DNA of 36,393 nt from a virus (taxonomy: Duplodnaviria; Heunggongvirae; Uroviricota; Caudoviricetes). Location: positions 1 to 36,393 of IMG/VR virus record IMGVR_UViG_2534682108_000013. The stretch is one strand, 5' to 3'. This document shows positions 1,032-35,569 of the stretch, piece by piece. The position numbers and the translations under genes were made by a program. The notes under the pieces are model-generated. The model saw only the letters and a list, made by a program, of their open reading frames with translations. It made no database searches and was not told where the DNA came from. Numbering within the stretch: the stretch's first letter is position 1; each line of letters begins with the position of its first letter.

Positions 1032-1147
1032 GTGATATAAATTTGTAACTAGCTATATAATAAAGATTTATTTGCAATAATTATAATTTTTATGTACTCA
1101 TTTATGTACACACATTTTTGAGGCCATTCCCTAGCTCTTTAAAATCG

Positions 1148-1615: not shown

Positions 1616-1858
1616 ATGTTCGTGGAACTCGTTTATGACAAAAGGAATTTTGATGGTCTGCCCGGTGCAAAAGATATCATTCTGGGCGAGTTAACTAAGA
1701 GGGTTCACCGGATCTTCCCCGATGCTGATGTTCGGGTTAAACCGATGATGACACTGCCGGCGATCAACACTGACGCCAGCAAGCATGAGAAGGAACAGAT
1801 AAGCCGTACTGTTCAGGAGATGTTTGAAGAGGCTGAATTCTGGTTAGTGAGTGAATAA
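1616..1858 (+). CDS. DinI-family DNA-damage-inducible protein
   Basis: 80 aa; C-terminus ...EMFEEAEFWLVSE parallels E. coli DinI ...ETWESADDWFVSE; AAGAGG RBS 8 nt upstream. Confidence 0.8.
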   Translation: MFVELVYDKRNFDGLPGAKDIILGELTKRVHRIFPDADVRVKPMMTLPAINTDASKHEKEQISRTVQEMFEEAEFWLVSE

Positions 1859-1926
1859 TTTTTTCAATATCCGCCACAGTTACATTTTGATTACGCTGTG
1901 GCAGATATTCGTTTTTGTAGATTTTC

Positions 1927-29677: not shown

Positions 29678-29878
29678 CTAATCATCTGGGTGGAGGTTTT
29701 TCCTGCTAACTGAGCCGCCAGAATGCGTTTCGATAGAAACAGATAGGGCAGCTCCCAACTTTTGTTTTTTGCTTATGGCTTTACGCAAGTACTCAAGAGA
29801 GGTTTCGCATCGTGATGCAAACTCTCTCTGTTTTTCGAGCGACAAAGCGTTTAGATAATTTCTTAACGTTTCCATCAC
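29678..29878 (-). CDS. Cro-like HTH repressor
   Basis: 66 aa, divergent from cI across an operator-rich 96-bp region; GGAGG RBS. Confidence 0.6.
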   Translation of the reverse strand: MMETLRNYLNALSLEKQREFASRCETSLEYLRKAISKKQKLGAALSVSIETHSGGSVSRKNLHPDD

Positions 29879-29897: not shown

Positions 29898-29965
29898 AAA
29901 ATATACCTTTAAGTAAATACAAGTCAATACCCAGGAGTCATTTACCTCAAAGTAAATTTAAGTAA
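29898..29965. promoter_or_regulatory. OR-like operator/promoter region (PR toward cro, PRM-like toward cI)
   Basis: Minus-strand TTGACT-N16-TATATT facing cro; repeated GTAAAT/ATTTAC half-sites including ATTTAC-N6-GTAAAT; 23-bp block nearly identical to 31063..31085. Confidence 0.5.
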
Positions 29966-29974
29966 GATGAAATA

Positions 29975-30685
29975 ATGAAAACTGAAACGCCTGACATCTT
30001 CGAGTTACGACGCCTCAAACTTCAGGAGTTGGTAACTCGCTTTAAGACCCAAAGAGAGTTTGCTGAAAAGGCAGGGCTTGATCCGACTGTTGTTTCTCGG
30101 ATGCTTTACCCTGTTGGTAAACCTAATAAGCGGAATATTGGGGAGCAGGCAGCTCGCCAGATTGAAGATGCTATGAAAATCAGCCGTGGATGGATGGATG
30201 GTCTTGGACCTACCACAAAAATGGATGTTGATGTACCCACTCACAAAGTCGACAATTATCGTGTAGAAGTTCTCGACCTTACTGTGAGTGCTGGTCCTGG
30301 ATGTTTTATGATCTCTGAGTTTGTTGAGGTTCTACACGCCATTGAGTTCACCACCGAGCACGCTCGTTCACTTTTCGGAAATCGTTCTCAGGAAGATGTA
30401 AAAGTGATGACTGTCGATGGTGACAGCATGTGCCCAACTATACAGTCTGGAGACAGGTTGTTTTTTGATGTTTCGGTAAGAAACTTCAAGGTAGATGGTG
30501 TTTATGCGTTCGTATTCGGACAGCACTTCCATGTAAAGCGCTTACAGATGCAGGGTTTGCAGCTTGCAGTTTTATCAGATAACCCTGTGTACAAAGACTG
30601 GTACGTAACTGAAGAAAACCAAGATCAATTGTACATAATGGGGAAAGCATTGCTACATGAATCAATAGCTTACAATAAACTGTAA
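29975..30685 (+). CDS. CI-type repressor (N-terminal HTH, C-terminal S24 LexA-like autopeptidase)
   Basis: C-terminal domain with DGDSM Ser motif and Lys (VKR); divergent from cro. Confidence 0.85.
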   Translation: MKTETPDIFELRRLKLQELVTRFKTQREFAEKAGLDPTVVSRMLYPVGKPNKRNIGEQAARQIEDAMKISRGWMDGLGPTTKMDVDVPTHKVDNYRVEVLDLTVSAGPGCFMISEFVEVLHAIEFTTEHARSLFGNRSQEDVKVMTVDGDSMCPTIQSGDRLFFDVSVRNFKVDGVYAFVFGQHFHVKRLQMQGLQLAVLSDNPVYKDWYVTEENQDQLYIMGKALLHESIAYNKL

Positions 30686-30740
30686 TTTTAGATGTCGGAA
30701 GTTGAAACAGACTGAGCAATTTCTAAAAAACAACATTTAA

Positions 30741-30765
30741 CCCGGCCCCAGCGCCGGGTTTTTAT
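30741..30765 (+). terminator. Rho-independent terminator after cI
   Basis: CCCGGC-CCCAGC-GCCGGG hairpin followed by TTTTTAT. Confidence 0.6.
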
Positions 30766-30968
30766 TGTCCTTTTCTCACCATAGCAGCGGCATCCCGTAA
30801 AACACCTTTGTGGATCACATTACCCACCGCGCGACGCTTAACCTCTAGGCTATCTACAATCGCATCTCGACTTATCACCACACCGTTGATTATCAACTCG
30901 ACAACTGCACCGCCTATTTCGCCAGCGATGAATGCCGCACGGTCTTCTTCCAGCTCATCACGTTCCAT
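30762..30968 (-). CDS. Hypothetical small protein convergent with cI
   Basis: 68 aa from the Met with GAGGG RBS (the ORF track start is 31040); no recognisable family. Confidence 0.3.
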   Translation of the reverse strand: MERDELEEDRAAFIAGEIGGAVVELIINGVVISRDAIVDSLEVKRRAVGNVIHKGVLRDAAAMVRKGQ

Positions 30969-31062
30969 ATCAGGCCCTCTCTGTTGCTTTTCTGAGCATA
31001 TCACGCATCTCCGAAATAAATAAATTCCAATTAAAAGCAATCAATTGCCATGTAAGTAAATA

Positions 31063-31109
31063 AAAATATACCTTTAGGTATTTACACAAAAATTACTCAC
31101 GGGTATATT
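31063..31109 (+). promoter_or_regulatory. OL/PL-like operator and rightward promoter
   Basis: Operator block AAAATATACCTTTAGGTATTTAC (3 mismatches to the OR block) overlapping -35 TTTACA, 17-bp spacer, -10 TATATT. Confidence 0.45.
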
Positions 31110-31175
31110 CAAATCATCATCAGCGAACAAACCGAAACCAATCACCATTGCAAACGGCGTTAGCTGAAGTAATAC

Positions 31176-31189
31176 CGCTCTTTAACAAT
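31176..31189 (+). promoter_or_regulatory. boxA-like antitermination element (CGCTCTTTAACAAT)
   Basis: 13-nt match to the rrn-type boxA consensus GCTCTTTAACAAT as recalled, about 60 nt downstream of the predicted PL-like start. Confidence 0.5.
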
Positions 31190-31787
31190 ATGAACACTTA
31201 CAGCGTCAATGACCTGTTTAGACCCCTACACGTAAACGTGGCGTAGCACCAGGCGCGATCCGGTTGGTGTGAGGTTATCCCCGCGCGAGAGCGAGAACGG
31301 CGTGAGAATGGGCAACACTGGCAGGGAAATGACGCTGATTACTGCTTAGAAGAGTTAGGTTCCCCCCGGTTACCCAGGGGGATGTGTGAGAAATTATGAA
31401 CAGTATTTCTTCACGATTAACATGGTGATGAAAATCAGTGTCGCTGTAACTGGTTCACAATGACTCAGCAGCAATGACATGATTAAGTAATCATATTTAG
31501 TCATCTACGTTTCCACGCCTACCCTTGCGAGTAGTCTGCTGAATGAATTCTCAGCATCCATATGTTCTCATATTCAGAGATATCAAAAAAGCCTTAGGAC
31601 CCTTGGGAGTGCTTTGGGGTGTGATGAATTGTAGCCATTAAAGGTAAGCCGAAGATCAGCACCGGCCACCGCACCACCAAAACATTTCCATAATTTCGAT
31701 GTCCAAAGCATTGGTGAACACTTAGAAATCAGACGAAACACACACATTCATACGGTTACTTTGTGTCAATCATTTCAGGAGGTTATA

Positions 31788-32903
31788 GTGCCATTATCCA
31801 AGCGTTCAGTTGAAGGCAGTCAAATGGCAAATGCACAGTACGAGAAAGGGAAAATCATACTTGAGCACACTAAAACTCAAGTCAAGAAGGCTGGAGAGTG
31901 CATACGAAAAGGAAATGGTGATATCGAAAAATCAATCGAGATTATCCAGCAGTATAGAGCGGCCCATCTGTACCCTTTGATGATTATTAAAAATCTCGTG
32001 TGGAAACATGCGCAAAAAATAAACAAAAACGCTATCATTGCACGTAGATTAAAACGTCTTCCGACCATTATTGATAAGTTACGACGTAAAACACTTGATG
32101 GTAAAACGCCGAATTCTATTGCTGTAACCCGAATGAGCGATATTGGTGGTTGCCGTGTAATTGTCGAGGACAGACAAGAGTTACTTTTATTAGATTCTTC
32201 GTTAGACAAAAGTCGCACCACCCATAAATCTAAGGTCAAGGATTATATAAGAACTCCGAAACCTACCGGCTACCGTGGTATCCATAGAGTTTATAGTTGT
32301 TATGACAAGGATGAATCTCATCAGTGGAAAGGGTTTGATATAGAAGTACAGTTAAGAACTAAACTCCAACATTTATGGGCCACTACAGTTGAAGTGGTGG
32401 ATTTGTGCGAAGGCAGGGCCCTGAAAACTAACCCATTCGAATCAAACCCTTCATGGATTGAGTTTTTCCAGCTAATGAGTGAATTCATTGCTGATGAAGA
32501 AGGATTCATTTTCCTACCTCCTCATAATAAAAACATCATAAAATCAAGACTTTTAAGTCTTAATGATAAACTTAATGCCATCGAAAAGCTCAGGTCATTT
32601 AACCGGTTATTCTCTGATAAAGAGTTAGACCTTTCCAAGAATAAGGGCGGATATGTAATAATCGCATTAAAATCAAATAAAATATTTTACAAGACCTTTA
32701 CAACATCTCAAAAGCACTTAGCTGTAACTGCATATTCCATTGTTGAAAAAGACGATGATGCAAATGGTTTATTTGTTGAGATGGACGACCTGCGAAAATT
32801 ATCTTCTGCCTACCCTAACTATCTAATCGATACGAGATTTTTTATAGATAAGTTTGAGTTGTATACCAATTCAAGTTATTGGGCAAAACCCCGACAGATT
32901 TAA
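31788..32903 (+). CDS. RelA/SpoT-domain nucleotidyltransferase with C-terminal extension (candidate fused toxSAS-type defence protein)
   Basis: Motifs TRMSDIGGCRVIVEDRQELL, KPTGYRGIHRVY, DIEVQLRTKLQHLWA; AGGAGG-5 nt-GTG start (the ORF track uses TTG at 31761); AT-rich; own terminator. Confidence 0.75.
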   Translation: MPLSKRSVEGSQMANAQYEKGKIILEHTKTQVKKAGECIRKGNGDIEKSIEIIQQYRAAHLYPLMIIKNLVWKHAQKINKNAIIARRLKRLPTIIDKLRRKTLDGKTPNSIAVTRMSDIGGCRVIVEDRQELLLLDSSLDKSRTTHKSKVKDYIRTPKPTGYRGIHRVYSCYDKDESHQWKGFDIEVQLRTKLQHLWATTVEVVDLCEGRALKTNPFESNPSWIEFFQLMSEFIADEEGFIFLPPHNKNIIKSRLLSLNDKLNAIEKLRSFNRLFSDKELDLSKNKGGYVIIALKSNKIFYKTFTTSQKHLAVTAYSIVEKDDDANGLFVEMDDLRKLSSAYPNYLIDTRFFIDKFELYTNSSYWAKPRQI

Positions 32904-32916
32904 TCTTTGTATAACT

Positions 32917-32941
32917 GAGGTCGCAATTGCGGCCTTTTTTA
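32917..32941 (+). terminator. Rho-independent terminator after the RelA/SpoT-domain gene
   Basis: GGTCGCAA/TTGCGGCC stem followed by TTTTTTA. Confidence 0.6.
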
Positions 32942-33282
32942 TTAGCCTTATCCTTTGGCGGTTATCTGGTCTTCAACCAACTCACAGGAGGATGAAGATA
33001 ATGTTCTGACATATAACCGCCCTTTTTATTCAATGTGTCCGCTTCCGGTGTCGGCTGGGACTCCCTACCCAGCGCGGGTTCAACTCCTGCCGGATACCTA
33101 ATCATATGGTGACTTATATGACCTTCCGTAACGTTAATTTTTACTACGGCGACCTGATGCGCGTCACTCGTGGTGTGCAGGCTGTTCGTAATCCAAAAAC
33201 AATCGCTAATTTCTGGCGGCGTAGCTGGTTATGCAGGTTACTCACTCAGAAAGGCGATCCTCGTTTATAACTGGAGATAACT

Positions 33283-35373: not shown

Positions 35374-35569
35374 TTTACCAAGATGCCCAACGTGCGGAAA
35401 TATGCCCGAATACTCGCTGAAACCCAATCATCTTGGCTGGGTTTGGGGTGGTATCAGATGCCCGTATGACCATTACAGCGTGAAGCCCAACGGACCGGCC
35501 AGTAACCGTGCAAAGGCAGAAGAAACTCTGGCTCCGCAGTGGATTGCGTTGGTAGAAAAAGCAAGATAA
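35360..35569 (+). CDS. Small zinc-ribbon protein (possibly Lar-family restriction alleviation)
   Basis: MKQSDLPRCPTCG... with a second RCPYDH Cys/His pair; overlaps the ParB-like stop; Lar assignment is weak. Confidence 0.35.
   Translation: MKQSDLPRCPTCGNMPEYSLKPNHLGWVWGGIRCPYDHYSVKPNGPASNRAKAEETLAPQWIALVEKAR

Follow-up and report, generated by a model that had tools for sequence, protein, structure and literature searches.

The 36,393-nucleotide (nt) stretch of viral DNA analysed here (IMG/VR record IMGVR_UViG_2534682108_000013, Caudoviricetes), hereafter the window, carries beside its repressor gene a leader in which a boxA sequence is followed by a conserved six-helix RNA, referred to together as the element. 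The 747-nt leader interval (31041–31787) is 100% identical to an Escherichia coli O157:H16 prophage adjoining a tRNA-Arg gene, taken here as the source prophage. It is flanked on the cI side by an open reading frame (ORF) on the minus strand (30762–31040) and on the opposite side by a RelA/SpoT-domain gene with a GTG start codon at 31788. As the initial annotation of this DNA had stated, neither strand of 31041–31787 contains an ORF of 60 amino acids (aa) or more, the longest being 54 aa (31583–31747, minus strand).

The leader belongs to a lambdoid immunity region, of which it forms the PL side, and PL is repressor-controlled. The cro gene (29678–29878, from the ORF list and annotation) lies on the minus strand and the gene for a cI-type repressor of the LexA/S24 family (29975–30685, from its ORF and a domain match) on the plus strand, with a bidirectional terminator 3′ of cI (30739–30760); PL therefore reads rightward. 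The promoter proposed from the sequence at 31081–31109 is recovered on the plus strand, its −35 (TTTACA, 31081–31086) and −10 (TATATT, 31104–31109) hexamers, 17 nt apart, matching the consensus at 10 of 12 positions. The same scan finds 8 promoters in the region against 7.3 expected from shuffles, which is no excess, so that the PL site is credible by its context and not by its score. Transcription would start near 31116. Three OL operator copies (31044–31067, 31066–31089 and, inverted, 31091–31109) overlap the two hexamers and correspond to the OR copies at 29901–29924 and 29940–29963; the copy at 31066–31089 contains the palindrome ATACCTTTAGGTAT (31068–31081). The resemblance to the cro–cI region that had been noted earlier amounts to 88% identity over 24 nt, between 31063–31086 and 29898–29921 in the cro–cI intergenic region.

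The initial annotation described a single 750-base-pair leader, which does not hold: the ORF-free stretch is composed, mosaic-like, of three modules, namely OL and PL, then a hairpin with boxA and the structured RNA, and last the 5′ flank of an inserted gene, which accounts for about 430 nt. In similarity searches, only 31177–31338 is widely conserved. This segment opens with boxA (GCTCTTTAACA, 31177–31187, plus strand), for which the earlier claim of an rrn-type motif proves correct, the match to the consensus GYTCTTTAANA (PMC5725501) being perfect. The window holds two such matches against 0.2 expected; the other, GCTCTTTAAAA (1134–1144, plus strand), lies in an A+T-rich stretch without an accompanying structured element and is probably due to chance. 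Over 13 positions, CGCTCTTTAACAA (31176–31188) agrees with the rrn boxA sequence UGCUCUUUAACAA at 12.

Downstream of boxA lies the structured RNA (31197–31340, plus strand), which is about 140 nt long and consists of six helices: P1 (31203–31208/31330–31335), P2 (31213–31218/31320–31325), P3 (31224–31226/31310–31312), P4 (31229–31232/31237–31240), P5 (31246–31255/31261–31270) and P6 (31278–31286/31291–31305), the last closed by a GAGA tetraloop. At the junctions, some 35 nucleotides vary little or not at all. The "several hairpins" reported earlier for the leader are thus present, and the description understated them, since 31197–31340 forms one conserved fold. The earlier suggestion that the leader encodes a structured RNA finds strong support in covariance analysis. 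RNAalifold applied to 21 sequences returns a multi-helix junction with compensatory change at 22 of 31 pairs. In a MAFFT alignment of 34 diverse sequences, made without reference to the structure, pairing holds in 91.9% of cells and drops to 30–42% when the partners are slid by 1–3 columns; double-sided changes occur at 24 of 37 pairs, and the covariation score of 0.342 (0.03–0.08 for the slid controls) is reached by none of 500 shuffles. When 56 distinct sequences are aligned to the model, 95% of cells are paired and 25 of the 37 pairs show double changes. G·U pairs make up 13% of cells, and pairing falls from 91.9% on the plus strand to 80.4% on the reverse complement; the better pairing of the plus strand indicates that the RNA is made in the PL direction.

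A covariance model of this fold (R1), built from 34 diverse homologues that include the window sequence, matches the window over its full length at 31197–31340 (150.3 bits, E value 5.5e-44); support independent of R1 comes from the 88% blastn identity to phage phi80. Folded as a single sequence the element is unremarkable (z score −0.47), so the structure rests on covariation and not on predicted stability. Rfam 15 yields no family at gathering thresholds across the whole window, and a permissive scan (E value up to 10) of 31000–31850 gives only chance-level matches, none of them over the element. ARAGORN found nothing, and a tRNA- or tmRNA-like identity was rejected.

The link between boxA and the RNA is strict. 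Among the 24 genuine genomic members recovered with a pattern that leaves boxA out, all 24 have boxA 5′ of helix P1, at a distance of 11–14 nt where it was read off the sequences. Promoter-like sites 5′ of boxA, at most 150 nt away, are found in 68 of the 109 distinct loci of the family, compared with 13 and 5 in control windows, with a median of 65 nt between the −10 hexamer and boxA. Between promoter and boxA, the minimum-free-energy fold predicts a plus-strand hairpin (31120–31167) that ends 9 nt before boxA. Its sequence varies across the family, in which a hairpin is usually present at that position: 38 of 59 distinct upstream segments have a predicted hairpin ending 0–3 nt before boxA, with a mean z score of only −1.1. 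The boxC of the rrn signal is UGUGUGGG-like; the boxC-like GGTGTGAGG (31266–31274) overlaps the 3′ strand of P5, and most members of the family read GGUGAGAG there.

Homologues of the element are spread over phages of Enterobacterales. The segment 31177–31338 shares 88% identity with phi80 and 87% with about 100 Stx2a-converting phages (P13374, TL-2011c, phi191, PA2 and others), HK225 and Klebsiella phage KO-TP1; P13374 is the Stx2a phage of O104:H4. The RNA core is 72–78% identical in APSE phages of Hamiltonella and in Providencia, Klebsiella and Edwardsiella phages. The element occurs in about 150 loci, in 223 of 5,426 complete E. coli genomes (about 4%) and in 123 phage records, and a pattern scan of IMG/VR gives at least 120 loci. 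Scanning one genome per species with the pattern without boxA produced 41 matches, made up of 24 Enterobacterales prophage loci and 17 chance matches, the number expected by our own estimate. Each locus has one copy, as do the whole phi80 genome and the window; no second copy of the PR-side or nutR type was found in the window (filters off, both strands), in the phi80 genome or in 154 loci. Wherever a phage record was inspected, the element follows cI or PL closely and is read in the direction away from cI; in the window it falls within the first ~250 nt of the transcript from the repressor-controlled promoter beside cI.

Sibling prophages fill the same slot in other ways. Nine loci, including the window, have the same RelA/SpoT gene as first gene: six carry boxA and the RNA element, three carry a sequence of the HK022 putL type, none carries both and none carries neither. 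The three putL-type loci are CPS-53-like prophages (L175, 2053–2110; L178, 1839–1900; L179, 2305–2362) that match HK022 putL at 84–87% identity in the same leader and have no boxA or RNA element; in phage O276 this type of sequence is annotated "antiterminator RNA". L175, the sole one compared in detail, also has the cI and PL type of the window: homology extends from cI through PL to 31141, breaks off and resumes at 31761. Conversely, putL is found in none of the 154 element-bearing loci. Within the fetched stretches of L175, L178 and L179 neither putR nor Nun was found, and put is used there at PL only. Downstream of putL, L175 has a conserved non-coding segment of ~210 nt (2154–2371) that recurs at 80–88% in vB_EcoS-733R5, an Stx2c phage, Hafnia phage yong1, Klebsiella RothC and mEp213; the sequence GCGGAUAGACCG is common to this segment and to the spacers of MB07152 and L185.

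The interchange also extends to N. A 68-aa ORF (30762–30968, minus strand; PHROG 3975, function unassigned) lies between the cI terminator and PL, reads toward cI and, in the best 80 of 179 related IMG/VR stretches, is kept at 84–99% whatever leader module follows PL. Among these 80 loci, 8 have the element and 7 a classical N, which is of one type with the motif GRRRERRAAL in five and lambda-type in two. Nothing in the present evidence speaks more strongly to the function of the element than its exchange with putL and N at a single site, and the presence of putL at the same place in siblings fits the proposal of the initial annotation that early transcription may use RNA-based antitermination. 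The fold, its strand, the boxA linkage, the position and the exchange with putL are shown by the sequences, from which Nus recruitment, antitermination and independence from a phage protein are inferred.

A third conserved and unannotated leader module, CCAUAGCAACAACGAACCACCCAGGCAGGACGCCCACGAAUGUAGCCGUCCGGGGCAUACGAAGACCGGAAUGAGGUGGAAAAGUUAACGCGCAGAAGG, occupies at least 40 of the same 80 loci, summed over the leader clusters inspected. It is seen in L191 (about 1730–1860, minus strand), L194, L198, L199, L212, L243 and L255, more distantly in L206, and also in Salmonella phages SEN34, SPN3UB and ST64B, Shigella phages SfV, SfII and SfIV, and mEp237; the prophages that share it differ in their operators and first genes. 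It belongs to no Rfam family and has no boxA, and it may be another alternative early-left RNA signal. An Rfam scan of the sibling loci likewise returned no family.

As a locus, the conserved segment is not new: it is the already annotated nutL of phi80 (M11919, 661–938; "nutL boxA" and "nutL core" in JX871397), with 88% identity over 31177–31338, an R1 score of 150.6 bits and the same position after PL. The two differ in that a 98-aa N gene lies ~190 nt downstream in phi80 and none in the window. The six-helix fold is not marked in phi80, whose annotation is limited to a boxA of 9 nt and a core of 12 nt corresponding to P4; phi80-type "nutL" features can be corrected in this respect, because only 21 nt of a module of ~160 nt are marked. 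No description was found in the searchable literature of the fold in six helices, of the obligatory consensus boxA, of how widely the family is spread, of its presence in phages reported without N or of the exchange with putL. The sequence of the element is printed in no open-access paper; the phi80 genome paper and the 1985 paper on phi80 N and nutL were outside the search.

Comparison with lambda nut shows a common slot at the start of the PL transcript, a boxA and a presumed role in reading through early terminators with host Nus factors. However, the boxA here has the full rrn-type consensus, whereas that of lambda is the shorter CGCUCUUA, and a boxB hairpin of 15 nt, with a GNRA-like pentaloop, is missing from its place a few nucleotides past boxA; a multi-helix RNA of ~140 nt is found instead. 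The hairpin nearest to boxA on its 3′ side is P4 (CACG-UAAA-CGUG, 31229–31240), an arm of the junction with a 4-base-pair stem and a 4-nt loop that begins 41 nt past boxA. Furthermore, the element is single, with no nutR, and no arginine-rich N gene was found with it.

HK022 put is similarly a cis-acting RNA just past PL in a lambdoid phage without N, and putL occupies the identical slot in the siblings. It is described as ~70 nt long with two stems, acting on the polymerase itself without dedicated protein factors (PMC9378689). Its action goes through the zinc-binding domain of the beta-prime subunit, in which rpoC mutations block put. Searches with blastn in both directions, using putL, putR and the HK022 early region, find nothing in the window, and the R1 model has no match in the HK022 genome; put stands at both PL and PR, the element at PL only. 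The signal of rrn operons, for its part, consists of boxB, boxA and boxC and works with NusA, NusB, NusE, NusG, SuhB and S4. The element resembles it in its boxA, whose match extends in Xenorhabdus and APSE members to GCUCUUUAACAAUUUA, in heading a long untranslated RNA and perhaps in the predicted hairpin 5′ of boxA. It differs in its phage context and in having no clearly conserved boxC, and the boxA leaders of rrn, CRISPR and suhB are without the large structured RNA that adjoins boxA here. Overall, the element departs from lambda nut in boxB, N and nutR, and from put in sequence, size and number of copies; with the rrn signal it agrees in part.

The position of the element and its analogy with these systems make it somewhat probable, in our judgement, that it is a cis-acting antitermination RNA linked to boxA and the Nus factors. 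Upon inactivation of the repressor, PL would fire, and boxA, ~60 nt into the transcript, would bind host NusB–NusE (S10), and these would join NusA, NusG and SuhB in a complex on RNA polymerase. The adjacent folded RNA might stabilise or complete the Nus complex through contact with a Nus factor or the polymerase. Nucleation of a Nus/SuhB complex by boxA is established for rrn leaders (PMC7665894, PMC5725501), and a precedent exists in CRISPR arrays, whose untranslated transcripts are shielded from Rho by boxA with Nus factors (PMC7665894). The polymerase would then resist Rho over the untranslated part of the PL transcript, which is ~670 nt long and has C-over-G stretches (31492–31595 and 31622–31777, from skew analysis). 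It would also read through the intrinsic terminator inside the PL operon (32917–32936, plus strand; an 8-base-pair stem with five G–C pairs, followed by TTTTATTAGC) into the remaining early-left genes. This terminator separates the inserted RelA/SpoT gene from those genes, which begin at 33118, and the promoter scan finds no plus-strand promoter-like site in 32806–33100. In the source prophage, such readthrough would take place without an N protein.

That the element works independently of any phage protein is a separate claim, and one that we put forward only tentatively. Equally tentative is the wider proposal built on it, in which boxA and the six-helix RNA would form a third class of phage early antitermination device, protein-free, acting via the rrn-type Nus/SuhB machinery of the host, unlike put, and driving the PL operons of N-less lambdoid phages across Enterobacterales, the Stx2a phage of the O104:H4 outbreak among them. 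The earlier statement that the interval has no N-like gene holds: tblastn with phi80 N, lambda N and the classical N of sibling loci gives only chance-level matches in the window, though a very divergent N might escape such a search, and the annotation of the source prophage shows no N from PL to int.

A number of observations weigh against these proposals. GenBank records of phi80 name the element nutL and annotate an N gene downstream; a gene for an N-like protein with 65% amino-acid identity follows the element in a Xenorhabdus locus (L148); small ORFs with basic N-termini follow it in Providencia, HK225 and Xenorhabdus lineages; and Edwardsiella phage Edno5 weakly matches the C-terminus of classical N. 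On account of phi80 N, the small basic ORFs and the Edno5 match, the element may be protein-dependent in some phages, and insertion sequences (IS) of the IS3 and IS66 families in the source prophage leave room for an orphaned signal. Nus–boxA complexes, moreover, can also promote Rho termination or repress translation (PMC5725501). The upstream hairpin contributes a weak statistical signal, as its mean z score indicates. Co-directional terminator-like sites occur in 49 of 70 dereplicated family loci and opposite-strand ones nearly as often (42 of 70), so that the frequency of downstream terminators does not discriminate.

Taken together, the protein-related points suggest a nut site, bound for example at P4 or P5 by an N-type protein, that is orphaned in the window, its cognate gene having been lost or displaced by the RelA/SpoT insertion, or is served by an unrecognised N analogue encoded elsewhere. 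The recurrence of a phi80-N-like gene right after the element in two lineages as distant as phi80-like phages and Xenorhabdus is in its favour, as is the arginine- or lysine-rich character of the small ORF N-termini. Among these, the 70-aa ORF starting MKSNMNSKQRWNLKRREAWIAERRNK, ~65 nt after the element in L036 and relatives (Providencia phage PSTCR7lys type), resembles by eye the arginine-rich motif of phage 21 N at its N-terminus; neither it nor the other small basic ORFs considered as N analogues has a Pfam or PHROG assignment. Nevertheless, just 11 of 148 loci, the Xenorhabdus one among them, have phi80 N less than 3 kb from the element, and it is missing from the other 137, in lineages of which compensatory changes in the RNA are kept. 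The initial annotation had named homologues with a conventional N as evidence against its proposal, and these 11 loci partly bear this out, although their protein has no arginine-rich motif by eye, no Pfam family and a PHROG of unassigned function. Clustering of the first ORF past the element in 133 loci gives 61 groups, and near-identical RNAs precede unrelated first genes; a shared downstream partner protein was sought by clustering of first ORFs and of all ORFs within 2.2 kb, and none emerged, both results coming from crude ORF calls. Neither the phi80 genome nor the window has the second copy that a nutR would represent. P13374 and phi191, both carriers of the element, are reported to be without N (PMC4122784). 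We consider a protein-dependent nut site rather unlikely. In P13374, ORF26 (L004, 4407–5081), which bears the GenBank product name "antitermination", matches anti-repressor PHROGs of the Ant/Bro type (E value 3.5e-120), and the product name looks wrong.

Readings in which the RNA does something other than control elongation fare less well. Its multi-helix junction with some 35 invariant or near-invariant unpaired nucleotides, and a ribosome-binding site ~15–30 nt past the 3′ strand of P1 in many loci, would suit a sensor or cis-regulator (riboswitch-like aptamer, thermosensor or translational operator) that gates the gene after PL, with boxA serving only for protection from Rho or as a folding aid; Nus complexes do assist RNA folding and repress translation (PMC5725501). 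Yet no expression platform is conserved, the sequence after P1 is variable, the next gene in the window is 450 nt away, the downstream genes are mutually unrelated, and neither a riboswitch nor any other Rfam family matches. Because siblings have putL or N in the slot, control of elongation is indicated rather than ligand sensing, and we regard a sensor as improbable. It is very unlikely that the element is a stable early RNA that acts in trans (for instance as decoy or sponge of a host factor or defence system) once termination or processing at the 5′ end of the PL transcript has released it. It is transcribed first from PL and has a compact fold with a GNRA tetraloop, and in P13374 an intrinsic terminator-like site ~170 nt past the element, before the first gene, would give a short RNA; across the family, however, there is no conserved 3′ end or terminator directly past the element, there is no evidence for a target, and the obligatory boxA marks a co-transcriptional, cis-acting signal. 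Action through peptides shorter than 60 aa, which the initial annotation had also considered, is hardly credible. Small ORFs are available (31148–31246, 32 aa; 31269–31349, 26 aa; 31386–31463, 25 aa; 31543–31641, 32 aa), none of them arginine-rich by eye, but the indels in P6 are not multiples of three and the substitutions in the conserved segment are compensatory base-pair changes.

Many lambdoid phages are without an N gene, and to our knowledge HK022 put is the only known alternative to N. As late as 2025, a survey offered "put-like" as a guess for a phage without N (PMC12315714). The element is a defined, covariation-supported RNA family in the nutL/putL slot, and its carriers include medically important Stx2a phages reported without N; in the source prophage, which lacks N, it may represent an undescribed way past terminators. 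If host Nus factors alone suffice, it would link rrn-type and phage-type antitermination and provide a compact signal for studying how RNA completes a Nus complex. If a protein is needed, the element would be an unusually large nut RNA.

The remainder of the leader (31358–31787, plus strand, ~430 nt) lies outside the conserved PL module. It recurs at 90–93% identity together with the RelA/SpoT gene in viral contigs L180 and L181, and in L181 an extra insertion separates it from the RNA element; it therefore belongs to the inserted gene. Among the 5,426 complete E. coli genomes it is present in the source strain only. The flank opens with a G+C-rich hairpin (31362–31381), in which a C–G pair is replaced by U–A in L181 as a compensatory change, and the promoter scan marks a weak promoter-like site at 31454–31483. 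The gene itself (31788–32903, plus strand; PGAP annotation, PHROG 4773) is the first of the PL operon and encodes a 371-aa product that matches Pfam RelA_SpoT (4.4e-17) and PADLOC PDC-S33 (1.2e-92), which makes it a candidate anti-phage defence gene; the protein may be of the toxic small alarmone synthetase type. Its placement between its own conserved 430-nt 5′ region and a terminator is the layout of an inserted accessory gene ("moron").

Further along, the source prophage shows at least partial decay. In the region that begins at 35539 and runs past the end of the window (4456014–4458051 of the source record), a DGQHR-domain gene is a pseudogene in the source genome, directly followed by the IS3-family element, and the IS66-family element lies further along the PL operon. 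A conserved hairpin different from the G+C one at 31362–31381, GAUUUAUUCCAGCCCCUUC(N5-7)GAGGGGGUUGGGCUGAAUC, is not found in the window and occurs without a U-tract in 18 distinct contexts, among them L173 (2427–2470), L175 (2379–2425) and L006 (2632–2680). It stands directly 3′ of the RNA element in one subtype and is also present in putL-type leaders, and it changes compensatorily, the HK225 version being CCAGUCCAUUC/GAGUGGGCUGG.

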